Source: a virus
Taxonomy: Duplodnaviria > Heunggongvirae > Uroviricota > Caudoviricetes
IMG/VR virus record: IMGVR_UViG_2609459844_000007
Coordinates: 1-15,367 of that record
Strand: one strand, 5' to 3'
DNA: 15,367 nt
The notes under the pieces are model-generated. The model ran no database searches and was not told the origin of the DNA. It saw only the letters and a program-made list of their open reading frames with translations. Positions 277-14,955 of this stretch are shown one piece after another (the stretch's first letter is position 1; every line of letters starts with the position of its first letter). The position numbers were made by a program, and so were the translations under genes.

Positions 277-933
277 TTATTGCAATTGCACAAGAGTCAG
301 TTCGCCCCCAAAGACAGCACCGGTATCAATATAATGCAGGTTGCCAATATCCACGCGATGTCGCAACGGTGTATGACCAAACCAGAAATGATCAGCACCT
401 GTAATTCCCTGCCCTTTTTGGCGTTCACCTAATCGCGAGCGGCTCCACAAGACCTGATGCAAATCAACGTCCTTTTGCCATTCATAAACATCATCTGGAT
501 AATCGGCATGAGCAATAACATGTTTGCCGGTACGACTGTGTACTTCAAGAATAAAGGGCAAATGCTGACATTTTTCCAGCGCCGTTTTCGCTTGTTTCTG
601 TTGATTATCTGCCAGCGCAATAAACCAGTCGCCGCCATTCATCAACCACAAAGACATCTGCTGGGATGCCAGCGCATCCATCGCCATCTGTTCATGATTG
701 CCTCTTACCGCACAAACCCAATGTTGTTCCAGTAACTGCAGACAACGTAAACTTTGCGGCCCACGATCGATAACGTCTCCTACTGAGATAAGTAAATCTC
801 GCCACGGATCAAAACGACAATGCCATAATTTGCGGCGCAACTGCTCAAGACAACCGTGTATATCGCCAGAAAGCCAGATATGTCGCCATTGATGACCCGC
901 AATTCTCTGATAAACGGGCGCAGGCTGTTTCAT
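277..933 (-). CDS. pphA: Serine/threonine protein phosphatase 1 (PrpA), calcineurin-like metallophosphatase, 218 aa
   Basis: Translation contains metallophosphatase motifs GDIHG, GDVIDRG, GNHE; sequence matches recalled E. coli PrpA; track ORF 277..936 begins MMKQ, second Met taken as start. Confidence 0.9.
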   Translation of the reverse strand: MKQPAPVYQRIAGHQWRHIWLSGDIHGCLEQLRRKLWHCRFDPWRDLLISVGDVIDRGPQSLRCLQLLEQHWVCAVRGNHEQMAMDALASQQMSLWLMNGGDWFIALADNQQKQAKTALEKCQHLPFILEVHSRTGKHVIAHADYPDDVYEWQKDVDLHQVLWSRSRLGERQKGQGITGADHFWFGHTPLRHRVDIGNLHYIDTGAVFGGELTLVQLQ

Positions 934-1065
934 CAATATTTTCCTCCCGCGCTAAAGATCACATAATCTTAACAAGAATGTTAAAAAACGCTGGACTCAG
1001 ACAGTAGAGTGTGTGTTATGGTTGACTATAAAGTCAGCGAAGGAAATGCTTCTGGCTTTTAACAG

Positions 1066-1098
1066 ATAAAAAGAGACCGAACACGATTCCTGTTTTCG
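1066..1098. repeat. Left prophage-chromosome junction: imperfect direct repeat of the sdsR 3'-end sequence (ataaaaagagaccgaacacgattcctgttttcgtc), about 29/33 identical to the copy at 14764..14795
   Basis: Direct sequence comparison of the two copies; 8-bp identical block agaccgaa (1073..1080) bounded by mismatches is the likely crossover region. Confidence 0.65.
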
Positions 1099-1397
1099 TC
1101 AACAAACAACAAAATCTTTTAGAATTAATGTGTTAAATAAATTTATGCTCATCTTTTAATCCCTAACACATACCATTACATATTAATACATTCAATTAGT
1201 TACCATTTTTTTCGAGTTTTTTAGAGAAATTTTCGGGAATATTTCAGATCAATCCATGCATACACAAGCAATTCCTGTATTGAATAATTCCGTAGCAATT
1301 ATGTAAAATCACCTCCGGCTGATTTTCATTCAAACTCGCGCTATCGAACGTCCATCAGCCAGCCGTGACACGTTCTTGCATACGACGTGCTACGGTT

Positions 1398-1535
1398 TCA
1401 TTTATCTCCGACCGGAAACTTCTTATACAAAGTCGATACGCCAACATCATAGATGATCGCCACCTTCTGGCGAGAAACTCCTGATGCAATTAGTCGTCCA
1501 GCCTGCGCCCATTGCTCCGGCGTGAGAGTAAGACA
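1398..1535 (-). pseudogene. 3' remnant of a Pin/Gin/Hin-family serine DNA invertase gene (C-terminal HTH only, about 45 codons, no start codon, catalytic domain absent)
   Basis: Minus-strand translation ...LTLTPEQWAQAGRLIASGVSRQKVAIIYDVGVSTLYKKFPVGDK* resembles the recalled C-terminal DNA-binding end of PinE-type invertases; in-frame stop immediately upstream. Confidence 0.7.
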
Positions 1536-1610
1536 TTAAACTGTAGAAAAATCTCATTAAACTTAATATAATAATAAGTTACAGAATTATCTTTACTGAA
1601 TAATAGATAT

Positions 1611-2156
1611 ATGAACATTAGTGAACTTAAAAACTGTATACACTATGAAGTAATAGGTTATAAACGCCCTTTCTCCTGGCGAAAAGCAATTGTTCGCGCA
1701 ATAAAACACAGAAGATTACGTTATTTATTTTGGTGGCGCATAGCAAAATATCTTTTTGATAAAGGCGGATACCGGCGAAAGGTTGCAGGAAAAATAGAAC
1801 GCTTCATTCTTGATAAATACAATGTAACCGTTCCCTTAACTGTAAATATTGGTAAAGGGTTCGACATATCTTATCTCAATGGCGTTGTTATCGGTCACAA
1901 AGTTACAATAGGTGAAAATTGTTCAATTAAGCCTGGAGTAACTATTGGACTTCGCGGTGAATTTAATGATATGGATATTGTCATAGGAAATAATGTAACC
2001 ATCGGCTGTAACGCCACCATCCTTGGTGGCAAAGTGCATATAGGGAATAATGTAAAAATAGGAGCTCATGCATTGGTACTGCATGACATTCCTGATGACT
2101 CCACATTCATTACTAAATTTCACTCTGAAATTATTTATAACTCATCTCACACATAA
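1611..2156 (+). CDS. Hexapeptide-repeat (left-handed beta-helix) acyl/acetyltransferase, 181 aa, CysE/LacA/WbbJ/NeuO-like superfamily
   Basis: Visible [LIV]-G-x4 hexapeptide repeats (VIGHKVTIGENCSIKPGVTIG, IVIGNNVTIGCNATILGGKVHIGNNVKIGAHALV); markedly AT-rich relative to neighbours; convergent with tfa. Confidence 0.8.
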   Translation: MNISELKNCIHYEVIGYKRPFSWRKAIVRAIKHRRLRYLFWWRIAKYLFDKGGYRRKVAGKIERFILDKYNVTVPLTVNIGKGFDISYLNGVVIGHKVTIGENCSIKPGVTIGLRGEFNDMDIVIGNNVTIGCNATILGGKVHIGNNVKIGAHALVLHDIPDDSTFITKFHSEIIYNSSHT

Positions 2157-2166
2157 TTCCGTTTAA

Positions 2167-2739
2167 TCACAGCTCTGGCCATACGATATCCGGGGCTGTA
2201 TTTATATCAATCCGACTCACTAATACCCGGTATTTTTTCCAGGAAGATAGCATCGAGACTTCCTCATCAGTTGCCATTTCAAAATTAACAGCATCCTGCA
2301 GAATTGTTATGTTATCAGTCGCTTCCTGGATTAATCTTGCCTTTTTCTCTTCCGCCTCCCGGATCCGGAACAGTTTTTCTGCTTCTGCATCTTTCACCCA
2401 AGCTGTGCCGTTCCACTTCTGAAACTCCCCATCCGGCGACAACCAGGTGACATTTTTCGGTAATGGGCCAAGTTCAGAAATAAATAACGCGTCGCCGGAA
2501 GCCACGTCATAGACGGTTTTACCCCGATGGTCTTCAATGAGATGCCACGATACCTCATCACTGTTGAAAACAGCCACAAAGCCAGCCGGAATATCTGGCG
2601 GTGCAATATCGGTACTGTTTGCTGGCAGACCTGTATGAGGCGGAATATATGCGTCACCGTCACCAATAAATTCATTAGTTCCGGTCAGCAGATTATAAAT
2701 TTTGATGGTTCGTGATTGTTCACTCATTCTGAATGCCAT
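2167..2739 (-). CDS. Tail fibre assembly protein (Tfa family, P2 gpG-like), 190 aa
   Basis: C-terminal region ([18 protein letters not shown]...[25 protein letters not shown]) matches the recalled conserved Tfa C-terminus; start overlaps tail fibre stop. Confidence 0.85.
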
Positions 2740-3854
2740 TATGCAAGCCTCACAATATAGTTAAATGCGATGTTTTTGACGGTGTTTTCCGCGTTACCAG
2801 CAGCGTTAACGGTGATGGTGTGTCCATGTGAGCCAATTGCAACGGAGTGCGTATGTGCACCAATACCGACAGTATGTGTATGCGCCCCAGCACTTGCTGC
2901 AGTACCTGATACTGAGTGGGTATGCGCGCCAGCAGAATTCGTTGCACCTAAGTGAGTTTGAGCAGAGTTCGACGAAGCTACTCTACCGGAGCTAACGTTA
3001 GCATTATCCCCCTGAGATATCGGATGCGTATGTGCACCTGCTGAAGCTGCTGTTCCGCTAACGCTATGGGTATGCGCACCAGTGTTATTCGTAGATTTAG
3101 TTCCATAATCAAACGATGATGTGTTTTTTGTCCCTAAATCTGTATTTGAAGCACTGGCGCTGTGGGTGTGCGATTTAATGCCGTCCTGTTCCTGGCTAAG
3201 AACATCACGTCCACTTGCAGGCTTACCTTTGATTGTCCAGCCACGCATATCAGGGATCACGCCTGACGGATAAGCGGCTGCAAGTTTCGGGTATGCAGAC
3301 TTGTCAAAAGTCTGTCCCTGCATCAGAGCATAACCAGATGGAACTGTATCTGATGGCCACGGGATCGGGGCACCTACAGGAAAGGTCGAATTATTTTCCA
3401 AACCAAGATATTTAAGGACATCAGCAACAGAGCTTTTTGCCAAAATATCTCGCCCAACCTGTGTCAGGTCAGCCAAATTAGCGGTATCTTGATTGGTAAA
3501 ATACGGTAATTTGTTTTCGGATGCTGAAAGATTAGCAAGTGCGGTAAGTATGGCATTAATTCTCTGATAGTTCTTATCTAATGCAGACGACATTTTTGCG
3601 ATAAAGCCTGCCTGATCGCCATCGTCCTGTACATCCAGTCCACTTTCATTTGCTGTATATTGTGCCATTGCAGATGCAATAAAGCTGGCCTGCCGAATAA
3701 CCTTATTGACTTGCGCACTGGATGCTTTCCCTGCTGTAAATCCGGATAAAAGCGCAGGCAACGCTTCCCATTCCTCCTGCGGCATAACATTGGCATTTTT
3801 ACCCGTTGCAAACGCTTTAAAGTCATTTTTCGCCATCAGAGTAATACTCCCCAT
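2739..3854 (-). CDS. Phage tail fibre protein (P2 gpH-like N-terminal region, collar-type C-terminal domain with GAHTHS repeats), 371 aa
   Basis: Segment [37 protein letters not shown] resembles recalled P2 gpH; repeated [19 protein letters not shown] motifs; position upstream of tfa. Confidence 0.8.
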
Positions 3855-4516
3855 GCTCCTATATCAAAACCACTGATGAATTCGTTATCCATATCAAAAC
3901 CAAAAAATTTTGAGCTTTCCGATGGGGTTTCCACCGAAGGTGTTTCAATGCCACCCGCCCATACCCCGGCGGCTTTTACTGTGAGATACCCCTGTTTAAT
4001 TGCCGCAATTAACTCACGCGATACATCTGAAATATCAGTATCAGGAAAGACCCAGACCGATATCGTCATGTCCTGGTTATCGACTATCTGCATTCGCAGC
4101 CCGGCTCCTGCTGTTACAGCGTCAAGAATTGCCGGAAGCGAATCATTCCGTCCGTCCCAGTTATTAATCGCAATCTTCGCTTTAAGAATGACACGATAGG
4201 TTTCATCGCTGAGGTACATGTATCCGGAATCAGGATCGTATGGTCCCTGCCATACCCCCTGATCATATCCAAGCCCGTCGGTATCCCAGCTGAAATAGAC
4301 ACCTGAGATAGGCTGGCTGACAATACGGCTACGTCCGATCCACAATCCCAGAATGTCAAGTTGCACACCAACCGCAGAGTCAATATCAAATGCAGTAATC
4401 AGCCCTCTGGTGGCAGCCGCAACATCAATAAGCGGCCGGGTCATCAGATCAACATGTGCAAGAAATTTAGGTTTGGTGGCGTGATAGTTTGTGATTAGTT
4501 CGGTGTATTTGCCCAT
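3836..4516 (-). CDS. Putative phage baseplate/tail protein (P2 gpI / e14 YmfQ position), 226 aa
   Basis: Long ORF between baseplate-J fragment and tail fibre in J-I-H-G order; overlapping start/stop coupling with both neighbours; family assignment by position only. Confidence 0.5.
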
Positions 4517-5094
4517 GACTCCACCGTTATAACGATATTTTCCGGGGTACAGGACGCAGATTCGTTATATCTGATATCAATGTTTGATGACGACAAAGCC
4601 CCCGGGGATTTCCCAATCGTCAGTTCCTGAATATCGTAATAGCGTGCATTCCCGCCACTCGCCACGCCAAGATTCGCCGGTGAGTAAATGCGACTTAAAA
4701 GGACTGAATCACCAATCGTCAGACTATTGATATAGTCGGAAATAGCCTGCTGGATCTGCTGCCCTATCTGTGAGGTATAACCCGTAAAAACTTTTAATTT
4801 AATCCGGGCATAAACAGGCACATCACTGGAACGCGAGAATTTGATTACATGGGGATTGCCGTATTTATCCGGAACCGTAACGGATGTTGTACCGTGAGTG
4901 GCTGTCCCCTGGCCTTTATTCCCTCTGATAGCCTGAGCAATATCCGTCACATCACCGCCATCCACAATTACAGCAACAGAGTGTGGCGGTAACCCGTTAC
5001 CGTCCTCCGAACCAGTATCGTTTTCATAGAGTTTGTGGCGGGTTACACCGGTAACATTAGAAACAGCACCATCCAGTGCTTCAAATGGGGTTAA
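4495..5094 (-). pseudogene. Baseplate J-like protein, C-terminal fragment (5' end deleted)
   Basis: ORF has no plausible native start (track begins at a TTG inside the junction); reading frame runs directly out of the truncated dnaC-like gene; position upstream of gpI-like gene. Confidence 0.6.
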
Positions 5095-5497
5095 CCACAA
5101 TCACTGTCTGACCGTCTTTCAGCAGGCGATTCCCGATAGCTGCCGCTAAGTGATTCTTCCCGGTACCAGGTTTTCCGCTGAACGCAAAATTTGTACACCC
5201 GGTCATCAGTTCATCGGCGATGGATTTCGCCTGGCTTAACGCGTGTCGCTGGCCGTCGTTCTGCACCTGGTAATTCGCAAACGAGCATTTACGGTGCAAC
5301 GGCTGGATGCCTGAGCGATTCAGAATTTTTTCCACCCGCAACTGGCGATTCAGGCGGTTGATCTCCTCGCTACGTTTCTGGCCTTCAGCAAGTTGCCACT
5401 CGCGCCACTCCGCTACCGTTCTGAATGGTGCGGTTACATGTGGCGGAGTCAGTCGGCGGATGCGTTCCAGAACGCCGCCTGTCGCAATATTTTTCAT
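5081..5497 (-). pseudogene. DnaC-like phage replication protein (helicase loader, YdaV-like), N-terminal 135 aa only; reading frame leaves DnaC homology after ...GQTVIVV and stops
   Basis: Strong resemblance to recalled E. coli DnaC N-terminal half including Walker A GKPGTGKNHLAAAI; DnaC homology ends at about 5093 then NPI-stop. Confidence 0.8.
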
Positions 5498-5503
5498 GGT
5501 CCG

Positions 5504-6298
5504 TTACCCCCTGAAGCCTGGCGGGATCGCACTGTCCGGCAACGAGACGGTGTTAACCTGTCGGAGCAACGTCTCAGGCCGAACACCTTTCGGCGCGAAC
5601 AGGCCCTGGTATTCATTGGCGATACTGTGTCGAATCACCTGCTCGGGTGTAAAACCCTGCTGGCGGAATTTTTCCAGCTCCCGTATCGCCCCGTTAGCGC
5701 CCTGCTCCGTTCGAATCGGTTTTCGCAATGCCTGCCTGAACCGGACCCACTCATGCCAGAGTGTTTCCGGCAACCAGTCAGGCAGCTCAATAGCCTCCGG
5801 CTCAAATTTTTTAGACGCTCGTTTTTGGCGAGGGGGATTTAGGGGGAGATCAGTATTTATATCTTCCTCTTCCTCTTCCTCTTCCTCTGGTAACGCTTTT
5901 TGATCCATTTGTGTAACGCTGCCAGCGTTACCTTTTCGTTTCAGTTCGCGTATTTTTGTAACTCGCTCGTTTGTAACCGCCCGTTTTTTAGAGCTTTTTC
6001 CGTTATGACGTTCAAAGTTAGGTAGAGAAAGCCCAACGTCATTTTCGACCAGCCATCCAACCTGAATTAACGCATCAGCAAAACCAGCCATAAAAGTGAT
6101 GCGATCTATTGCACTTTTTGTAACGCCGCGAGCGTTACAATCTGCATTACCGTCTATCATTTGTTGATCCGCCCATGCCCAGAAGCGAATAACCTTCCCT
6201 AATGCGGCATCTGGATCAATATTCAGAATCTCAGCAAGCCTGAATATTTCCGGCTTATCCGGCGTAATAACCTCGAGCTTTATCCAGTTTGAAGCCAT
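5504..6298 (-). CDS. Phage replication initiation protein (YdaU-like), 264 aa, with internal poly-Glu tract
   Basis: Position between CII-like gene and dnaC-like gene as in Rac (ydaT-ydaU-ydaV); family assignment by position and recollection. Confidence 0.65.
   Translation of the reverse strand: MASNWIKLEVITPDKPEIFRLAEILNIDPDAALGKVIRFWAWADQQMIDGNADCNARGVTKSAIDRITFMAGFADALIQVGWLVENDVGLSLPNFERHNGKSSKKRAVTNERVTKIRELKRKGNAGSVTQMDQKALPEEEEEEEEDINTDLPLNPPRQKRASKKFEPEAIELPDWLPETLWHEWVRFRQALRKPIRTEQGANGAIRELEKFRQQGFTPEQVIRHSIANEYQGLFAPKGVRPETLLRQVNTVSLPDSAIPPGFRG
5863..5888. repeat. Simple sequence repeat (cttcct)x4, encoding the EEEEEEEE tract of the replication protein on the minus strand
   Basis: Direct reading of sequence. 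Confidence 0.9.
5913..5931. promoter_or_regulatory. 19-bp palindrome gtaacgc-tgcca-gcgttac (copy 1 of 3), candidate protein-binding site/iteron
   Basis: Perfect 7-bp inverted arms with 5-bp spacer; same arms recur at 6120 and 6312. Confidence 0.45.
6120..6138. promoter_or_regulatory. 19-bp palindrome gtaacgc-cgcga-gcgttac (copy 2 of 3)
   Basis: Direct reading; 207 bp from copy 1. Confidence 0.45.
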
Positions 6299-6311
6299 TT
6301 GTTTTCACCTT

Positions 6312-6330
6312 GTAACGCTCGCAGCGTTAC
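6312..6330. promoter_or_regulatory. 19-bp palindrome gtaacgc-tcgca-gcgttac (copy 3 of 3), just upstream of the replication gene start
   Basis: Direct reading; 192 bp from copy 2. Confidence 0.45.
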
Positions 6331-6375
6331 ATTTAACTGATACCGAACAAAACAATCCGGCACGATTAATTTCAA

Positions 6376-6798
6376 TCAATGCACTACGACAGAATCGCCG
6401 GGCGACCCACCACCGCTGAAATGTGCTTTCCGGTAAACGGCCTGGACTGCATCATCATGCGCATCAATTGCCGTACTCAACGCTTCCTGCGCCGCCAGTA
6501 ATGCACGGCGTTCCAGGGTATCGAAGATGCAGAGTCGGTGACGCAGCTCGCGCGGAAGAATTGCCAGAACCGCAGGGATCAGTTTCTGAATTTTTTCCCT
6601 TTGCGCTTTCGTTTCACCTTTCAACCAACGGTGATAGATATTCTGCTGATTGTTCCAGTCCTTGCCTGGTACAAGGGGCAATTCGCCGCCCCCCTGGCGC
6701 AGATATTCTTCAGTAATTGCGTTAGCGACCCACGCCTGCCCTTTTTCGGCTGCCAGGGCTAACAACACTGATTCGATGTGCTCATGCCTGATTTTCAT
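6376..6798 (-). CDS. ydaT: YdaT-like (CII-like) prophage regulatory protein, 140 aa
   Basis: Sequence resembles recalled Rac YdaT; overlaps upstream Cro-like gene by 4 nt; position downstream of cro. Confidence 0.7.
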   Translation of the reverse strand: MKIRHEHIESVLLALAAEKGQAWVANAITEEYLRQGGGELPLVPGKDWNNQQNIYHRWLKGETKAQREKIQKLIPAVLAILPRELRHRLCIFDTLERRALLAAQEALSTAIDAHDDAVQAVYRKAHFSGGGSPGDSVVVH

Positions 6799-7037
6799 GA
6801 ATCAACCGCTCCTATGCTGTTTTCGCTATGCTTACCGTCTGGGGGGAATACATCGTCAAGTCCACAATGAGCGCCAAGCCGATTAAGGGTAGAAACAATT
6901 TTTCTGCACTCCTCTAGTCCAGGGGTACGAAAATTTGCTTCGTAATTTGCCAGTCGGCTTTGTATCCACCCTAACTGAACAGCAAGTTGTCTTTGAGACA
7001 GCCCAAGCTGTTTTCGATATGTTGAAATTTTGTTCAT
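6795..7037 (-). CDS. Cro-like HTH DNA-binding protein (YdaS-like), 80 aa
   Basis: HTH LGLSQRQLAVQLGWIQSRLANYEA; divergent from repressor gene; GGAGG Shine-Dalgarno 6 nt upstream of ATG. Confidence 0.75.
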   Translation of the reverse strand: MNKISTYRKQLGLSQRQLAVQLGWIQSRLANYEANFRTPGLEECRKIVSTLNRLGAHCGLDDVFPPDGKHSENSIGAVDS

Positions 7038-7061
7038 TGAAAACCTCCGATGACAATTTTA

Positions 7062-7122
7062 AACACACCTTGTGTTATATGGTCAAGCTGTTTTGTGTTT
7101 TATGTAAATCACGATTCGTGAT
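7062..7122. promoter_or_regulatory. Right operator region: inverted repeats aacac-N5-gtgtt (7062..7076), degenerate copy (7085..7099), atcac-N5-gtgat (7108..7122) at 23-bp spacing, between divergent cro-like and repressor genes
   Basis: Direct reading; candidate -35 TTGACC on minus strand (complement of 7081..7086) for the cro-like gene. Confidence 0.6.
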
Positions 7123-7133
7123 ACAAGGATGCA

Positions 7134-7553
7134 ATGGAAAAAGAAAACGAAAAAATTGCCGCCAGTAGGCTCAATGACAAAATTGCAATGCGTCTTAAAG
7201 AGCGCAGGCAGAAGCTTGGTTTATCTCAAGGAAAACTTGCTGAAATCTGCGGATGGACGCAATCGCGTATAGGTAACTATGAGGCGGGCAGCAGAAATGT
7301 TGGAGTGCATGACGCTGTCGTATTGGGAAAGGCACTTGGCATATCTCCTCCTGAGCTCCTCTTTGGAGAACAGGAATCTTCTGAATTGTGGTTAAATGAA
7401 TCCCAACGAAAACTTCTTGAGTTGTTTAACCAGCTACCGGGCTCAGAACAACAACGAATGATTGAGCTATTTGAAGTCCGGCTAAAAGAAATCGATGAGT
7501 ATGTAGAAAAATATTTGAGAGGCAGGCTTAAAGATAATCCCCCACCGGAGTAA
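7134..7553 (+). CDS. CI-like prophage repressor, XRE-family HTH, 139 aa, no LexA/S24-like peptidase domain
   Basis: HTH LGLSQGKLAEICGWTQSRIGNYEA nearly identical in the recognition region to the Cro-like protein; divergent arrangement across operators. Confidence 0.8.
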   Translation: MEKENEKIAASRLNDKIAMRLKERRQKLGLSQGKLAEICGWTQSRIGNYEAGSRNVGVHDAVVLGKALGISPPELLFGEQESSELWLNESQRKLLELFNQLPGSEQQRMIELFEVRLKEIDEYVEKYLRGRLKDNPPPE

Positions 7554-7583
7554 TGATCTTGCTATCACAGTAATATGCCAATC

Positions 7584-7608
7584 AGCCCGCTATCAGCGGG
7601 CTTTTTTG
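7584..7608 (+). terminator. Rho-independent terminator after repressor gene (agcccgct-atc-agcgggct + TTTTTTG)
   Basis: Perfect 8-bp stem, 3-nt loop, U-tract. Confidence 0.75.
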
Positions 7609-7637
7609 TACCATCATCATATGACACTCACCGAAAA

Positions 7638-7679
7638 AACACATTTCGTGTTGACATAAGAAAACGCATTGTGTTTAAT
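7638..7679 (+). promoter_or_regulatory. PL-like promoter (TTGACA 7651..7656, 17-bp spacer, TTTAAT 7674..7679) with overlapping operator aacac-N5-gtgtt (7638..7652) and a second degenerate operator (7661..7675)
   Basis: Direct reading; same operator motif and 23-bp phasing as in the right operator region. Confidence 0.6.
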
Positions 7680-7853
7680 AAGCATATCCAAACAACGCCC
7701 CATCAGAGAACGGCAGGACAATACCTCGAGTTATCCAGTCACTGAACAGGGCTAAGTAGCCAGCCTGAGGCATACGAACATGACGGCAGTTGTTGATTGA
7801 TACAAAGCGCAGTAGATAAAACGTTCCGCCACCCGGCGTTAAGGGGAAAAAAG

Positions 7854-8072
7854 ATGGTTGGTGAAGATCTGGTTGTTATTAACGGTCAATTGTGCAGCAA
7901 AGATGTGGCAGCCATGCTTATTAGCAAGGTTCTTCCAACTGTGCTGGAGGTCATTGCAGAAAAAGTAAAGGCTGGTCGTCCAGACAAGGAAGTTGAAGAG
8001 GCGGCAAAAACAGTTGTTCATGCCGCTACAGAAGCAATTATTTTGAAGAGCCTAGTTTCGCCCAAGCCTTAA
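7854..8072 (+). CDS. Hypothetical small protein, 72 aa (MVGEDLVVINGQ...), first ORF downstream of PL-like promoter
   Basis: Strong SD AAGGGG 7 nt upstream of ATG at 7854; T7 tract 8085..8091 downstream; no recognisable family. Confidence 0.5.
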   Translation: MVGEDLVVINGQLCSKDVAAMLISKVLPTVLEVIAEKVKAGRPDKEVEEAAKTVVHAATEAIILKSLVSPKP

Positions 8073-8232
8073 GTGAATCGGCGCTTTTTTTAGCATCACG
8101 TTCATTGAGTAGTGACAAAAACTCATTCTCAGCATTCTCGATTTCCGAGAAAAATTCTTGATGAGTTGTTTCTCGCTGCGATCTGATGCTGAAAACTAAA
8201 GCAAGTAGCCAGGCTTTGTCTTTATTATCCAT
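8038..8232 (-). CDS. Hypothetical small protein, 64 aa (MDNKDKAWLLALVFSIRSQRE...), convergent with and overlapping the 3' end of the 72-aa ORF
   Basis: SD AAGG 7 nt upstream of ATG; candidate sigma70 promoter on minus strand (-10 TATACT = complement of 8267..8272, -35 TTTACC); no family recognised. Confidence 0.35.
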   Translation of the reverse strand: MDNKDKAWLLALVFSIRSQRETTHQEFFSEIENAENEFLSLLNERDAKKSADSLKAWAKLGSSK

Positions 8233-8418
8233 AGGAATACCTTATTACTGGTTGTGTGAGAACTCCAGTATACCACCGAGCCTGAAGTGGTAAAAAGACA
8301 GGCGCACAACACGAAGGCGCATTTCCGGTATTCATAAAGAGTCGGACTTGTCTGTTAAATTTAAATGGTGGGAGTGCGCCTCCGGTTGTAAATAACGACA
8401 TTGCTATGTGTAGTCTTT

Positions 8419-8462
8419 GGCGGCATCAGTTCTACTCCGTGGCTGCCCTGCCGCCCCTTTTT
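8419..8462 (+). terminator. Terminator-like GC stem (ggcggca ... tgccgcc) followed by TTTTT, inside noncoding region upstream of kilR
   Basis: Direct reading; large loop, so strength uncertain. Confidence 0.35.
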
Positions 8463-8627
8463 AAAGTGAATTTTGTGATGCGGTGAATGCGGCTAAGCGC
8501 ACGCGGCACAGTTAAAAGCATCAGTGTTATGGGTGGATTATCCGGCGTTAATTGTTAACTGGTTAACGTCACCTGGAGGCACCAGGCACCGCATCGACAA
8601 AATTCATTTGTAAAAATGGTGATAATT

Positions 8628-8849
8628 ATGATTGCTCATCACTTCGGAACTGATGAAATACCACGTCAGTGTGTGACCCCTGGCGATTATGTTCTTCATG
8701 AAGGTCGGACATATATCGCCTCGGCAAACAATATTAAAAAGCGAAAACTTTATATTCGAAGCCTGACAACAAAAACATGCATTTCTGACTGCATGATTAA
8801 AGTCTTCCTCGGTCGTGATGGTTTACCTGTAAAGGCGGAGTCATGGTAA
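8628..8849 (+). CDS. kilR: KilR-like cell-division inhibitor (Rac kil), 73 aa
   Basis: Sequence [35 protein letters not shown]... matches recalled Rac KilR; gene order kilR-ydaE-racC-recE; track ORF starts 12 nt upstream at 8616 without an SD. Confidence 0.8.
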
Positions 8850-9019
8850 TGACTAAGAAAATAAAATGTGCTTATCACCTTTGCAATAAAGAAATTGAAG
8901 AAAGCAAAATCATTACAAGACCACTTCATTTCATGCGTGAAGTTATACCAACGACGGAAATGAAAAAATATTGTAGTGAAATCTGTGCCGAAAAAGACCA
9001 GATGGCACACGAACTTTAA
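8849..9019 (+). CDS. ydaE: YdaE-like small Cys-rich metal-binding protein, 56 aa (not in ORF track because under 60 aa)
   Basis: Manual translation [56 protein letters not shown]; start overlaps kilR stop (TAATG); position as in Rac. Confidence 0.7.
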   Translation: MTKKIKCAYHLCNKEIEESKIITRPLHFMREVIPTTEMKKYCSEICAEKDQMAHEL

Positions 9020-9093
9020 TTAACTGACTATCCGAAACTGAATTTATGCCAGCAATGGCAGGGATTCGCTCAACCTTAATTAAGGAGAAAAAC

Positions 9094-9369
9094 ATGATTA
9101 CCAGTTATGAAGCCACTGTTGTTACTACTGATGACATTGTTCACGAAGTCAGCCTGGAAGGAAAGCGTATTGGCTACGTGATTAAAACAGAAAATAAAGA
9201 AACCCCTTTCACTGTGGTTGATATCGACGGTCCATCAGGCAACGTTAAAACGCTTAACGAAGGCGTCAAAAAAATGTGCCTGGTGCATATCGGAAAGAAT
9301 CTGCCCGCAGAAAAAAAAGCCGAATTTCTGGCAACTCTGATTGCAATGAAATTAAAAGGTGAAATCTGA
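9094..9369 (+). CDS. racC: RacC-like protein, 91 aa
   Basis: AAGGAG SD 6 nt upstream of ATG at 9094; sequence matches recalled Rac RacC; track ORF starts further upstream at 9046. Confidence 0.8.
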   Translation: MITSYEATVVTTDDIVHEVSLEGKRIGYVIKTENKETPFTVVDIDGPSGNVKTLNEGVKKMCLVHIGKNLPAEKKAEFLATLIAMKLKGEI

Positions 9370-9374
9370 AAGAA

Positions 9375-9399
9375 ATAGCCTGCGTATGGCGCAGGCTAT
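9375..9399 (+). other. Perfect 10-bp inverted repeat hairpin (atagcctgcg-tatgg-cgcaggctat) without U-tract, between racC and recE
   Basis: Direct reading. Confidence 0.6.
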
Positions 9400-9469
9400 G
9401 AACAGTGTGTATCCGGCAAGATTATTCACTGAACAAACGAATTTTAATCTGAGTTGAGGTTAAAAAACA

Positions 9470-12400
9470 ATGAGCACCGATAAACAAGTTTACCCACTGT
9501 ATTACGAAGCAAAAAATGACAAAGTAAGAAAACGTCTCGGTATTAAAGGCGGTTTTTACTGGGCTGAAGCGAAAAAATTATCCATTGCCATCTCCCGTGG
9601 TGCTGTTGCGATTGACGATGCTGGCTACGATGAAGATGACTTCAAAAAACCTGTTCGCGTCAATTTGCCCGTTGTTGATGACCTCCCGCCAGAAGGCGTA
9701 TTTGATACGGAATTCTGCAACCGTTACGAAAAAGGCGGGGAAGATGGCATCACAATGGTATTTATCGCGCCCTCACCCTCTGCGCAGGGCAAACCAGCCG
9801 GCACTGACAACACCAATGTTAATGGCGAAGACATGACGGAGATTGAGGAGAATATGCTACTCCCGATTTCTGGCCAGGAGCTGCCCATTCGCTGGCTTGC
9901 TCAACACGGCAGCGAAAAACCGGTAACGCACGTTTCACGCGACGAACTCCAGGCATTACACATTGCACGGGCTGAGGAACTACCAGCTGTTACTGCCCTA
10001 GCTGTTTCCCACAAAACCAGCCTGCTCGATCCGCTGGAAATTCGCGATCTCCACAAACTGGTGCGTGATACTGACAGAGTTTTCCCTAATCCAGGCAATT
10101 CAAGCCTGGGACTGATGACTGCTTTTTTCGAAGCATACATGAACGCAGACTACACCGATCGCGGTCTGCTGACAAAAGAGTGGATGAAAGGAAATCGTGT
10201 TTCACGCATCACGCGCACGGCTTCCGGCGCTAATGCTGGCGGCGGGAACCTCACCGATCGCGGCGAAGGTTTCGTTCACGATCTGACGTCACTGGCGCGC
10301 GACGTAGCCACTGGCGTACTGGCTCGTTCAATGGACGTGGACATTTATAACCTTCATCCGGCACACGCTAAACGTGTCGAGGAAATTATCGCTGAAAATA
10401 AACCGCCCTTTTCTGTTTTCCGCGACAAATTCATCACCATGCCTGGCGGGCTGGATTATTCCCGCGCCATCGTGGTTGCCTCCGTAAAAGAAGCACCAAT
10501 TGGGATCGAGGTTATCCCCGCACACGTCACTGAATATCTGAACAAAGTACTGACTGAAACTGATCATGCCAACCCTGATCCGGAAATCGTGGATATTGCC
10601 TGCGGTCGCTCCTCTGCCCCGATGCCGCAGCGTGTAACAGAAGAAGAAAAACAGGATGATGAAGAAAAACCGCAACCATCTTGCGCAATGGCAGATGAAC
10701 AGGCAACGGCTGAAACAGTGGAACCGGATGCAACTGAACATCATCAGGACACGCAGCCGCTGGATGCTCAGTCACAGGTAAATTCTGTTGATGCGAAATA
10801 TCAGAAACTGCGGGCAGAACTCCATGAAGCCCGGAAAAACATTCCGCCCAAAAATCCTGTCGATGCAGACAAATTACTGGCTGCCTCTCGCGGAGAATTT
10901 GTTGAAGGGATTAGCGACCCGAATGATCCGAAATGGGTTAAGGGGATCCAGACCCGCGATTCTGTGTACCAGAATCAGCCAGAAACGGAACAGAACGACC
11001 AGAAAGCGGAACAGAACAGCCCAAATACGCAACAAAACGAGCCAGAAACGAAACAGCCTGAGCCAGTAGTGCAACAACTGGAAACGGAGAAAGTTTGCAC
11101 CGCCTGCGGTCAGGCTGGCGGCGGCAACTGTCCTGACTGCGGCGCGGTGATGGGCGACGCAACGTATCAGAAAACCTTTAATGAAGAAAATCAGAATGAA
11201 TATCAGGAAAAAGGTCTGGAGGAAATGGAAGGTGCTGAACATCCGCACAAGGAGAACGCTGGCAGCAATCCGCATTGCGATTGCAGTGATGAAGCTGGTG
11301 AAGCGACAGCACCTGTAGTAACTGAAATCATGTGGCCGTCATATTTCGAGCCTGGCCGCTATGAAAACCTCCCGAACGAGGTTTATCACTCCGCCAACGG
11401 AATAAGCAGCACAATGCTGAAGGATGCCCGCATCAGCCTGATGTATTACCACGGACGGCACATTGCCGGAACTATTCCGGGCGAGGAAAGTGATGCATTG
11501 CTGCGTGGGCGAATTATTCACAGCTATGTTCTGGAAACGGATAAATTCGCTGATGAGTATGCCATTCCGGTACCGGTTCCTGAATATGTGGTTACTACTT
11601 CTAACGAACTGATCGCCATCATTAAAAAACACAATGCCAGTCTGCCAGCACCGATGACACCAGAGCAGATGAAAGAGTGGATCGAAAGCTACAACAGCAC
11701 TCTTATACAGCCACTGTCGGTAAGTGCCGGGGCCGAAGAAACAGGCATCCTTTACGGTTCGCTTCCGGAGGAATTCCGGCGTATTCCTGAGGGGGAAAAA
11801 CACACAGCATCAGCAATGAAAGCCTGTATTAAAGAATACAACGCAAACCTCCCTCCTCTGTTGAAAACCAGTGGATCACGGGAGCAACTTCTGGAGCAAA
11901 TTGAAACTGTAGATCCAGAACTGGCAAAAAAAGAACGTGCTAAATCTTTGCCTTACAACATCAGTGGCACAAAAGAGCAATTAACCGAAATCGCACGGAA
12001 AATTCGCCCGGAACTGGTGACACTGGAAGACTGGCAAAAACGCCAGCAAGAAGAAAACGCCGGGAAAACGTTTATCAGTCCGGATATGTATGAACAGGCA
12101 AAAAATATTCACGCTGCACTGCAAAACAATACCGATGCAGCAAGGCTACTCAACCACCCGGATCGCAAATCTGAAATCAGCTATTTCGGGTTTGATGAAG
12201 AAACCGGGCTGGAAATCAGGGTCCGTCCTGATATCGAAATCCGGCTGCCATACGAAAGCATTTGCGCCGACGTGAAGTCAGTCAGCCTCGGTTATGTGCG
12301 ACAGGAACGACTGAAAGATCGCCTGCACCGTGAAATTATTGAGCGTGATTATCACCTCAGCGCAGCAATGTATTGCGATGTGGCAAACCTGGACAAATTT

Positions 12401-12766
12401 TTCTGGATCTTCGTCAACAAAGATGCTGGCTATCACTGGGTGGCCGTCGTGGAAGCCTCGCAGGAACTCCTGGAACTTGGTCGACAGGAATATCGCCGGA
12501 CGCTACGACAGATAAATGAAGCTCTGGAGACAAACAACTGGCCAGCACCGATTACCGAAAGTTATACCGACGAATTAAACGACTTTGATCTTCGTCGTCT
12601 TGAGAAGATGATAAATAACCTGCCTTCATCAGGTGATCCAGAAGCAGAACAAAAATTTATTGCTCTGGAAAATACGCTGAATGCTGCACGACCACATCTG
12701 GGAGAATTATATGAGGCGTATAAAACGACACTGACAGATATGAAACCAGAATATATCGGCTCCTGA
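9470..12766 (+). CDS. recE: RecE-family exonuclease VIII homologue, 1098 aa, with divergent C-terminal PD-(D/E)XK nuclease domain carrying a ~150-aa insertion and a C-terminal extension
   Basis: N-terminal/central ~600 aa closely resemble recalled K-12 RecE (e.g. [43 protein letters not shown]); Cys4 cluster [16 protein letters not shown]; PD...DVK motif at 12227..12276. Confidence 0.85.
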
Positions 12767-12774
12767 TATTTACT

Positions 12775-12798
12775 ATGGCGGTGTAGCCTCACCGCCAT
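12775..12798 (+). other. Perfect 9-bp inverted repeat hairpin (atggcggtg-tagcct-caccgccat) between recE and ralR
   Basis: Direct reading. Confidence 0.6.
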
Positions 12799-12829
12799 AA
12801 CAAAACTTTATTTTATGAGAGAAAAGACA

Positions 12830-13024
12830 ATGCGGTATGAAAAAGTCAAACCATGTCCGTTTTGTGGTTGTCCATCAGTAACGGTGAAAGCCATTTCAGG
12901 ATATTACCGCGCAAAGTGTAACGGATGCGAATCCCGAACTGGCTATAGTGGAAGTGAAAAAGAAGCACTCGAAAGATGGAATAAACGAACTACTGGAAAT
13001 AATAATGGAGGTGTTCATGTATAA
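12830..13024 (+). CDS. ralR: RalR/Lar-like restriction alleviation protein, 64 aa
   Basis: MRYEKVKPCPFCGCPSVTVKAISGYYRAKCNGCESRTGY... matches recalled Rac RalR (Lar); Cys4 motif; track ORF begins at upstream ATG 12815. Confidence 0.8.
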   Translation: MRYEKVKPCPFCGCPSVTVKAISGYYRAKCNGCESRTGYSGSEKEALERWNKRTTGNNNGGVHV

Positions 13025-13205
13025 AATTACTGCCACTATTGAAAAGGAAGGTGGCACTCCTACTAACTGGACAAGGTACTCAAAAACAAAATTAACCAAA
13101 TCAGAATGCGAAAAAATGCTCTCAGGTAAAAAAGAAGCAGGCGTTTCCAGAGAGCAGAAAGTAAAGCTGATAAATTTTAATTGCGAGAAGCTTCTGTCCT
13201 CGTGA
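13017..13205 (+). CDS. ydaC: YdaC-like small protein, 62 aa
   Basis: GGAGG SD 5 nt upstream of ATG 13017; overlaps ralR stop; resembles recalled Rac YdaC; track ORF starts at 12948 inside ralR. Confidence 0.65.
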   Translation: MYKITATIEKEGGTPTNWTRYSKTKLTKSECEKMLSGKKEAGVSREQKVKLINFNCEKLLSS

Positions 13206-13260
13206 GTTGCATTATATACAAATTAGAACTTCATAGCTGATTATTAAAAATCAACCACCC

Positions 13261-13289
13261 CCGCCAGTATTCTGTATATTTACTGGCGG
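13261..13289 (+). other. 9-bp inverted repeat hairpin (ccgccagta ... tactggcgg, 11-nt loop) between ydaC and xis
   Basis: Direct reading. Confidence 0.55.
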
Positions 13290-13305
13290 TCATATCGTAA
13301 GAGGT

Positions 13306-13592
13306 ATGGCAATGAATCTTGTGACACTAAAAACGTGGGGAAACTCAGATATCCAGATAACCCACCATCAATATCAACGCTGAGACGATGGGCAAGGAAT
13401 GGAAACATTTATCCTGCACCTGAACTACACGGGAGGAGTTACAGGGTGGTTCCGGAGGCTTTCTATATCAACCCAAATAAGGTTGATACCGATATAACAC
13501 ACCATCAGCCTAATGGGCGACAAGGGAGAGACAGTCCGTTACTGGAGAAGTTAAAACATGCAGCGGAAAAAATACGATCCCAATTTGCCTAA
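13306..13592 (+). pseudogene. Excisionase (lambda Xis-like winged helix) with apparent -1 frameshift in a G4 run (13337..13340); downstream frame opens with GTG at 13335
   Basis: Frame 1 from ATG 13306 encodes MAMNLVTLKTWG then stops; frame 3 continues KLRYPDNPPSISTLRRWARNGNIYP...; together they align with the recalled lambda Xis N-terminus (LTLQEWNARQRRPRSLETVRRWVRE). Confidence 0.55.
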
Positions 13593-14634
13593 AAACTTAA
13601 CATATCGAAGGAGGGACAAAGCATATTACTGGCGCAACCCTATGACGAAAGAAGAATTTACACTAGGTAAAATTTCAAGAAGAGATGCAGTAGCGCAGGC
13701 AATTGAAGCAAATCATTATATATACAAAAACTACTCTCCTGCTGCCTTAATTGAAAAGCTTAAAGGGTTCGACTCATTTACTATGGCAGACTGGATTGAA
13801 CGTTACAAAACGATTCTTATAAGGAGAAAAGTGTCCAGAAATACTTATAAAATTCGGGTAAATCAACTGGAGACAATAAAAGAAAAATTGGGAGGGATTT
13901 TACTGACAGAAATAACCACTCGCCATATTGCCGAGTTTCTTGATTTGTGGATTGAAGGAGGGAAAAACACGATGGCAGGATCAATGCGTTCTGTGTTATC
14001 TGATATGTTCCGCGAGGCCATTGTTGAAGGACGTATATCTCAAAATCCAGTAACGCCAACAAGAGCACCGAAAATAGTAGTTACAAGAGAACGGCTGAAA
14101 CTAAAGACATACAACTGCATCAGGGAGGCAGCAGATCAACTTCCGACATGGTTCCCATTAGCTATGGACTTAGCCCTTGTAACAGGACAACGTCGCGAAG
14201 ACATAACGAATATGCGGTTCAGTGAGATTTATGATGATCGTCTCCACATCAGGCAAATTAAGACAGGAATGATGATTGCTATCCCCCTGTCACTCAGCCT
14301 TCCTGTCGCTGGTTTACGACTTGGTGCAGTAGTTGAACAGTGCCGCATGGTAAGTAGGGGGGATTATCTAATCAGTGCCGGGATTAGAAAAAACAGCCCT
14401 GACGGTAGCATTCACCCGGACGGCCTGACAAAGAAATTTGTCGCAGCCAGAAAATTAACAGGTATCCAGTTCAGTGAAAACCCACCAACTTTTCACGAGA
14501 TCAGAAGCCTGGCTGGACGATTGTACAAAGAAACATGTGGAGAAGAATTTGCTCAGCGTCTACTTGGCCACACATCGGAGAAGACAACAAAAATGTATCT
14601 TGATGAGAGAGAAAAAACGTACTTACTGCTCTGA
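13558..14634 (+). CDS. int: Tyrosine integrase, lambda Int family, 358 aa
   Basis: N-terminus aligns with recalled lambda Int (PPNLYIRNNGYYCYRDPRTGKEFGLG versus [27 protein letters not shown]); catalytic-region motifs [21 protein letters not shown]-terminal Tyr in TTKMYLDE. Confidence 0.9.
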
Positions 14635-14710
14635 TTTTAACGTAAATGGATTGTTAAATGTATTTTGGTTGTGATATAACCAAAAAGACCGGAATACAGA
14701 AATTCGAGTA

Positions 14711-14730
14711 AATTTCGGGGAATTTCGGGG
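14711..14730. repeat. Tandem direct repeat aatttcgggg x2 in the int-proximal att arm; candidate arm-type integrase binding sites
   Basis: Direct reading; related motif aaattttcgggaat at 1227..1240 in the opposite arm. Confidence 0.4.
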
Positions 14731-14763
14731 AGACGTTTGCAACTAATTGATTTTAAATACAAT

Positions 14764-14795
14764 TAAAAAAAGACCGAATACGATTCCTGTATTCG
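14764..14795. repeat. Right prophage-chromosome junction: att-core copy that is also the terminator hairpin of sdsR
   Basis: Imperfect direct repeat of 1066..1098; perfect hairpin gaccgaatac-gattcct-gtattcggtc. Confidence 0.65.
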
Positions 14796-14868
14796 GTCCA
14801 GGGAAATGGCTCTTGGGAGAGAGCCGTGCGCTAAAAGTTGGCATTAATGCAGGCTTAGTTGCCTTGCC
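14764..14868 (-). ncRNA. sdsR: SdsR (RyeB) RpoS-dependent small RNA, about 105 nt
   Basis: Minus-strand sequence GGCAAGGCAACUAAGCCUGCAUUAAUGCC...GGACCGAAUACAGGAAUCGUAUUCGGUC(U)n matches recalled SdsR; sigmaS-type -10 CTATTCT (complement of 14874..14880) upstream; terminator hairpin plus U-tract. Confidence 0.85.
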
Positions 14869-14955
14869 CTTTAAGAATAGATGACGACGCCAGGTTTTCC
14901 AGTTTGCGTGCAAAATGGTCAATAAAAAGCGTGGTGGTCATCAGCTGAAATGTTA

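Follow-up and report, generated by a model that had tools for sequence, protein, structure and literature searches.

In bacteriophage lambda, the N-terminal domains of the integrase (Int) bind arm sites, IHF bends the arms, and the C-terminal domains act at the core (PMC4880445). Passages in two papers (PMC7380047, PMC3333887) describe ryeA/ryeB (sdsR) as an insertion hot spot at which att lies at the 3' end of ryeB and inside ryeA, and, in summarising Balbontin et al. 2008, give the att of the Salmonella phage PhiW104 as the last 23 bp of ryeB. Within the literature searched, outside which the original of Balbontin et al. 2008 fell, we found no description of arm sites for the integrase family that uses sdsR.

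Here we analysed a window of 15,367 nucleotides (the whole stretch of DNA under consideration), in which short motifs shared by both sides of an att core had been proposed to be arm-type sites of a lambda-family integrase. We conclude that the attP of the element in this window is probably built on the lambda plan, in which TTCG-cored units in both arms would be the arm-type sites for the N-terminal domain of a lambda-like Int. The proposal is supported by the domain content of the integrase, by the fixed spacing of the units and by their co-variation with the integrase, from which we infer binding. The feature is of an ordinary kind, and it leaves the accepted mechanism unchanged; the less ordinary aspect is that the N-domain segment and the arm repeats diversify together among integrases that share one attB.

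The integrase encoded here is homologous to lambda Int over its full length, including the arm-binding domain (~39% protein identity), and xis is adjacent to int in both systems, whereas attB is the sdsR terminator hairpin here and the gal-bio site for lambda. Members of the PhiW104 hot-spot group have the same att location, and the Salmonella relatives ZC-S1_prp, L061-L063 and L133 share the core and the arm plan. The Rac prophage of E. coli K-12, whose integrase IntR targets ttcA, shares RalR/RalA, the RecE-type exonuclease, YdaT and the HTH repressor with this element but differs in integrase and att; the kinship lies in cargo and early genes, not in the att system.

The element and its crossover in the sdsR terminator

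The element spans window positions 1099-14763 (13.7 kb) and is inserted in the sdsR (ryeB)/ryeA terminator hairpin of E. coli. The DNA on either side of it (window 1000-1098 and 14764-14950) is matched in 5426 of 5426 complete E. coli genomes; window 1099-1420 is present in only 228 of them and absent from 5198, and the int end of the element is also carried by 228. In strain T7Express the site is empty and reads GACCGAACAC GATTCCT GTATTCGGTC, with flanking pphA and yebY genes that the annotation of this empty-site genome places at window 277-936 in the left flank and from 15026 in the right flank, respectively. Full-length Rfam matches (RF00111 and RF00101, 118 and 179 bits, respectively) locate the SdsR (RyeB) sRNA gene at 14765-14864 on the minus strand and RyeA/SraC at 14761-14905 on the opposite, plus strand. 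The crossover is within the 3' terminal part of sdsR/ryeB and internal to ryeA, and it leaves SdsR intact.

The att core is the sdsR terminator hairpin (14772-14798), in which 10-bp inverted repeats (I6) flank the 7-nt loop GATTCCT. At the left junction, all on the plus strand, the bacterial core half-site GACCGAACAC (1075-1084), which is the left hairpin stem and is identical to the empty site, is followed by the predicted 7-bp overlap GATTCCT, the hairpin loop (1085-1091; centre 1088), and by the phage-derived core half-site GTTTTCGTCA (1092-1101), an imperfect copy of GTATTCGGTC that also follows the overlap in the attP of PP818812 and of L049. At the right junction, likewise on the plus strand, the phage-derived core half-site GACCGAATAC (14772-14781) differs from the empty-site GACCGAACAC at 14779 and precedes the predicted overlap GATTCCT (14782-14788; centre 14785) and the bacterial core half-site GTATTCGGTC (14789-14798); empty-site genomes match the window from 14764 on. 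The crossover is bounded by a C/T difference (1082 vs 14779) and a T/A difference (1094 vs 14791), and these differences between attB and attP give an interval of 1083-1093 at the left junction, equivalent to 14780-14790 at the right. This interval fits strand exchange in the 7-bp overlap that forms the hairpin loop, the exact cut positions being putative. Among the 36 distinct distal arms that we collected, 27 of E. coli type and 9 of Salmonella type, positions 1083-1101 have no polymorphic column within either type, and the two consensus sequences are 89% identical over this stretch.

Lysogeny swaps GACCGAACAC for GACCGAATAC in the sdsR terminator stem, which changes a G·U pair of SdsR to A-U (14779, compared with position 493 of the empty site L282). 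The A-run is altered as well, from AAAAGAG to AAAAAAAG, and phage DNA takes the place of the 5' flank of ryeA.

The phage origin of the left arm is evident from relatives in which the two ends of the element meet. In PP818812, whose int and adjoining arm DNA are 97.6% identical to ours over a 1.2-kb match, window 14795 is joined directly to window 1099, and the same join occurs in eight IMG/VR loci; this direct join identifies a contiguous, intact attP. Both motifs are kept in the attP of this phage, which has a near-identical integrase, even though its distal arm is only 85% identical. None of the empty-site chromosomes carries the left-arm motif, as only the 228 genomes noted above extend past 1098 and the T7Express site was read directly. 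The original prediction that 1099-1300 is phage attP arm and not chromosome is therefore borne out, both by the absence of this DNA from 5198 of 5426 E. coli genomes and by the contiguous attP of PP818812. The record PP818812.1 (L001) is entitled 'Actinobacillus phage vB_Apl-pPE4' and labelled as a phage of Actinobacillus pleuropneumoniae; its attP has the enterobacterial sdsR terminator core, and the host label looks doubtful.

The gene content of the element (Int, Xis, RalR, the RecE-type exonuclease, YdaT, the repressor and the remnants) identifies it as a Rac-like lambdoid prophage remnant. The excisionase (Xis) gene (13335-13592, plus strand; Pfam PF07825 Exc, E 2e-12) overlaps the start of int. 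The RalA antitoxin sRNA (13023-13201, minus strand; Rfam) is paired with the protein-coding RalR (Lar; 12815-13024, plus strand), and the plus strand also carries the DicF sRNA (8405-8456; Rfam) and a RecE-type exonuclease of 1098 aa (9470-12766). Other genes of the element encode YdaT, an HTH repressor, tail-fibre remnants, an acetyltransferase and a pin-invertase fragment. The last of these, a Pin/Hin-type DNA invertase C-terminal fragment of 45 codons (1398-1535, minus strand) that ends in ...LTPEQWAQAGRLIASGVSRQKVAIIYDVGVSTLYKKFPVGDK and a stop codon, adjoins the distal att arm, and the hexapeptide acetyltransferase gene (1611-2156) lies beyond it together with tail-fibre remnants. The late region is mostly deleted, and a Rac-like early region is here coupled to another integration module.

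TTCG-cored units and their fixed geometry

Distances in the arms were counted from the overlap centres, 1088 for the distal arm (positive) and 14785 for the int-proximal arm (negative). In the int-proximal arm, ttcgagt at 14703-14709 and two copies of aatttcgggg at 14711-14730 occupy exactly the positions originally given for them. This ttcgagt belongs to a tandem array of three units on the plus strand, in which it is the third: AAATTCGAGT (14700-14709; arm site 3, outermost, CG at -79.5), AAATTTCGGGG (14710-14720; arm site 2, CG at -68.5, which some E. coli relatives have as CGAGT or CGAGG) and AATTTCGGGG (14721-14730; arm site 1, innermost, CG at -58.5). Across 70 related loci, this arm reads AAATTCGAGT / AAATTTCGGGG / AATTTCGGGG with natural variants, and in Salmonella types the proximal array is CGAGG three times or CGGAA three times. 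Judged by these variants, ttcgagt and tttcgggg can stand in for one another and represent a single TTCG-cored unit. Thus, the presence of motifs in both arms stands, but the division into two separate motifs does not, as both are variants of a single unit of ~10 bp. The refined picture is of a three-register array in each arm, with 10/11-bp spacing and beside an IHF-type site, of which the distal middle register is degenerate here.

Between the proximal array and the core lies a predicted IHF site, AATCAATTAGTTG (14740-14752, minus strand; -45 to -33), which is a perfect WATCAANNNNTTR, reads away from the core and keeps its TTGAT in Salmonella-type arms. Just outside the third arm site is a pseudo-core, AAAAAGACCGGAATACAG (14682-14699, plus strand). 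It copies part of the phage-side core half-site together with its A-run, forms a direct repeat (D2) with 14767-14776 and is kept in relatives from E. coli to Serratia. This pseudo-core, which is extra relative to lambda, may serve Int as a fourth contact, may be a relic, or may act as a hot spot for deletion. In the IMG/VR contig L023, a deletion between two copies of AAAAAGACCG has taken away the whole proximal arm array. An intrinsic terminator at 14661-14690 (TTGGTT...AACCAA) was considered and rejected by eye, as no T-run follows it on either strand.

In the distal arm, ttcgagt (1211-1217) and aaattttcgggaat (1227-1240) were also found at precisely the positions predicted. They belong to three registers on the plus strand, spaced 10 and 11 bp: site a, TTTTTCGAGT (1208-1217; CG at +125.5), holds ttcgagt; register b, TTTTTAGAGA (1218-1227), is degenerate, with AG where relatives have CG at +135.5; and site c, AATTTTCGGGA (1228-1238; CG at +146.5), lies inside aaattttcgggaat. 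The sole change in site a among the 27 E. coli-type arm variants is A-to-G, and the Salmonella-type site a reads TTACGTT and is therefore a weaker match. In relatives, register b is AATTCGGAC, TATTCGGGA or TATTCGTGG, and we propose from this comparison that it may have decayed in the E. coli lineage. Site c is a conserved block in the 36 arm variants.

Directly core-side of the distal array is an IHF-like site with one mismatch, ATTCAATTAGTTA (1190-1202, plus strand; +102 to +114). Among 13 attP-type junctions, a regular-expression search matched this element at offset 102 in 11, and (G)ATCATATAGTTA and (G)ATCATATAATTA stand there in the remaining two. The variants of the site (TT to CC) are confined to N positions. 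A consensus scan gave a further, tentative and weak IHF-like site, AATTAATGTGTTA (1123-1135, plus strand; +35 to +47), with one mismatch to WATCAANNNNTTR. These candidate IHF sites are consensus matches, of which those at 14740-14752 and 1190-1202 are conserved in position across lineages. Within the 27 E. coli-type arms, 7 of 48 columns are polymorphic in the block 1191-1238 versus 51 of 151 in the arm outside this block (Fisher p = 0.011), and the E. coli-type and Salmonella-type consensus sequences are 92% identical over the IHF-like site, 55% over the array and 35-49% elsewhere.

The layout can be compared with that of lambda, whose sites we located in its sequence (L128, NC_001416 27500-27900) with distances again taken from the overlap centre. 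The proximal IHF site of lambda, H' (TATCAATTTGTTG), is at +31 to +43, compared with -45 to -33 here, and in the same orientation; its three tandem proximal sites P'1-3 are at +53 to +83 (10 and 11 bp apart), compared with -85 to -55 here (11 and 10 bp); and its distal site P1, on the strand of the proximal array, is at -143 to -134, compared with +141 to +150 for site c. The distal arms differ in plan, as a three-register tandem array lies outside the IHF-like site here, whereas lambda has P1-H1-P2 with P2 inverted. The recognition sequences are unrelated, A-W-T-T-T-C-G-R-G-K here versus the lambda arm-site consensus C/A-AGTCACTAT. In the lambda RefSeq record, the features 'int 1' and 'int 2' match P1 and P2 in position, and 'int 4' (27814-27854) misses P'1-P'3, which we located at 27785-27815; this looks like an annotation offset.

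The positions of the units hold across lineages. The proximal array and the distal anchor are always 194 bp apart (9 attP loci). We compared 13 attP-type junctions that represent E. coli-, Salmonella- and Serratia-like lineages: their proximal CGs occupy -79.5/-68.5/-58.5 (or 1 bp less) and their distal CGs +125.5, +135.5 and +146.5. The outer two distal positions are occupied in 13 of 13 junctions, the last as TTCG, and the middle CG is missing only in the E. coli type and in the Salmonella variant L002. This spacing is kept though the surrounding arm sequence is just 35-49% identical between lineages. Positions so constant in DNA that has diverged elsewhere point to a structural function for the units, within a nucleoprotein complex that has the crossover as its anchor.

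An alternative that we consider unlikely is that only the proximal triple is an Int array and that the distal segment 1211-1240 is conserved for another reason, as an IHF, Fis or Xis region or as a regulatory element of the neighbouring gene. Such a reading would accommodate the degenerate register b of this element, the TTACGTT of the Salmonella-type register a, the IHF-like site that the distal block abuts, and the start of an ORF about 10-20 bp past site c in some Serratia-like contigs. It would also accommodate the distal triplets, which do not strictly track the proximal type: CGAAC as well as CGGGC occurs in Salmonella-type distal arms, and a model of simple G-to-A co-variation linking the two arms, E. 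coli type versus Salmonella type, was tried and held in part only. However, the CG registers are fixed in the 13 junctions despite differing neighbours (in this element the pin fragment, in pPE4 a tail-fibre gene and in ZC-S1 a sopE cassette), the proximal array shares the TTCG core, the strand and the 10/11-bp spacing, and lambda has the Int site P1 at the same distance. Moreover, register b of Salmonella-type attP takes the form AATTCGGAC in precisely those loci that have a CGGAC proximal array (L102, L187). We therefore favor the reading in which Int docks on both arms.

Among Salmonella-type loci (L002, L076, L083, L093, L094 and L104), several have a frameshifted or truncated int, and both arrays and the exact 194-bp spacing are kept. 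These include ZC-S1_prp, the Salmonella-type relative with the sopE cassette beside its distal arm.

Co-variation of the arm repeats with the integrase N-terminal domain

The integrase gene (13558-14634, plus strand), whose stop codon is 150 bp from the crossover centre, encodes a lambda Int homologue with an N-terminal arm-binding domain at residues about 3-61. The protein matches PF00589 (E 5e-16), PF22022 and, over residues 3-61, PF09003 Arm-DNA-bind_1 (28.6 bits against a cut-off of 22). It matches the lambda Int chains 5j0n/1z1b over residues 8-353 (E 1e-71) and the lambda N-domain 1kjk over residues 8-59 (E 2.7e-4).

A scan of one genome per species gave 30 informative relatives, 47-95% identical and from ~15 enterobacterial genera, nearly all of them located at sdsR. 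A triple tandem (A)WTTTCGNNN adjoins int in 29 of the 30, and the Mixta locus L150 shows two units. While TTCG is kept in nearly every unit of these arrays, the triplet that follows it is lineage-specific (GGG, AGT, AGG, GAA, GAG, GAC, TGG or ATA), and all copies change together. This triplet varies along with a segment of the Int N-terminal domain, residues 18-24. Of 14 distinct segment variants of the GAC type, a set retrieved by its motif, 12 have R at position 20, and none of 14 other variants has it (Fisher p = 6e-6, with no correction for phylogeny). The two GAC-type variants that have no R20 read KASKSFF and RYYKSYY. Residue 20 aligns with N21 of lambda Int, which in the structure of the lambda N-domain falls at the turn joining beta strands 1 and 2. 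In a single genus, the Serratia integrases of L137 and L139 have C-terminal domains that are 92% identical, yet their segments read RNRNAFY and RKGKSFY, and their repeats, CGGAC versus CGAGT/CGAGT/CGATT, differ in all three units. Several Salmonella-type int genes are frameshifted and were left out of the protein comparisons; for the frameshifted int of L155 and L158, the C-terminal identities are unreliable.

This co-variation, the strongest computational proxy for binding in our data, also bears on which protein reads the units. That another protein of the element, an excisionase or a repressor, binds them in both arms in place of the Int N-domain would agree with the presence of an xis gene beside int, and the excisionase sites of lambda are also typically tandem direct repeats (PMC4880445). 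We nevertheless regard this as very unlikely. The repeat triplet follows the Int N-domain segment even where C-terminal domains are 92% identical, which points to the N-domain as the reader of the units and disfavors another protein; the units stand in both arms at the distances of lambda Int sites; and the int-proximal P' arm of lambda has only Int and IHF sites (PMC4880445).

Considered within the window alone, the motifs have moderate to thin support, and it is the comparative data that lift them well above chance. TTCGAGT occurs 3 times in the window versus 1.8 expected, and TTTCGRG 8 times versus 4.6 expected, with 4 of the 8 falling, always in plus-strand orientation, within the two short att arms; neither these two forms nor ATTTCGGGG (with one mismatch) are enriched window-wide. 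When the 199-bp distal arm was shuffled 20,000 times with its dinucleotides preserved, at least two TTTCGRG, a degenerate form picked post hoc, were seen at a frequency of 5e-5, and the same shuffles gave 0.010 for TTCGAGT alone and 0.007 for TTTCGGG alone. The best 30-nt gapless alignment between the arms (19 of 30 matches) is not significant, as it was equalled in 236 of 300 shuffles, and the similarity of the arms is therefore limited to the short units. That the shared motifs are functionless chance matches in AT-rich DNA, kept by recent ancestry, is extremely improbable: they are short, one shared 7-mer is expected between two 200-bp segments, and neither the inter-arm alignment nor the window-wide counts speak for them, but the shuffled distal arm rarely reproduces them, their position and spacing are conserved across integrases 47-95% identical with arms that are largely unalignable, and the three proximal copies evolve in concert.

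A probable lambda-plan attP and a possible diversification of arm sites

We propose that the element would recombine as follows. A heterobivalent Int would place its C-terminal domains on the two 10-bp halves of the hairpin stem, and strands would be exchanged in the 7-bp loop GATTCCT. Its N-terminal domain would dock on the ~10-bp TTCG units of both arms, with the consensus A-W-T-T-(T)-C-G-R-G-K in this lineage. In the proximal arm, an IHF bend at 14740-14752 would return the units to the core; in the distal arm, the IHF-type site at 1190-1202 would be followed by the array at 1208-1238, in which a and c, ttcgagt and tttcggga, would be the units used. The TTCG units, at -85 to -55 and +120 to +150, are unlike the core half-sites, and the arms are absent from empty sites.

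With the core, both arms and an intact int and xis identified, the 13.7-kb remnant would have every cis and trans part for excision. Our analysis also defines an arm-site consensus and a fixed attP geometry for a widespread family of enterobacterial integrases at sdsR/ryeA, which can be used in the precise delimitation of prophages and in the construction of integration vectors. The coupled variation of arm repeat and N-domain provides a natural data set on how arm-binding domains of the lambda type read DNA.

It is possible, and we suggest it only tentatively as a view that we find somewhat doubtful, that arm-site specificity in this single-attB family has diversified repeatedly, through coupled change of the N-domain beta-hairpin segment (residues 18-24, mainly position 20) and of all arm repeats. 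If true, such diversification would create mutually orthogonal intasomes, allow several prophages to reside in tandem at one site without cross-excision, and offer a readable residue-to-base code for arm-binding domains.

Further relatives were seen at sdsR and beyond. Serratia montpellierensis (NZ_VOSN01000022.1) has two tandem prophages of the sdsR integrase family at sdsR (L136 and L140), whose integrases have C-terminal domains that are 86% identical, repeats of CGAGT versus CGGAC and different N-domain segments. Integrase relatives of 35-39% identity occur in Azospirillum and Halothiobacillus. In IMG/VR metagenome data, GC-rich viral contigs that have no sdsR core (L167, L169, L172, L173, L176 and L178) carry tandem TTCGGAC-type repeats of two or three units, the outermost being degenerate in L172, L173 and L178, and the CGGAC-type arm repeat may thus be used well outside Enterobacterales.
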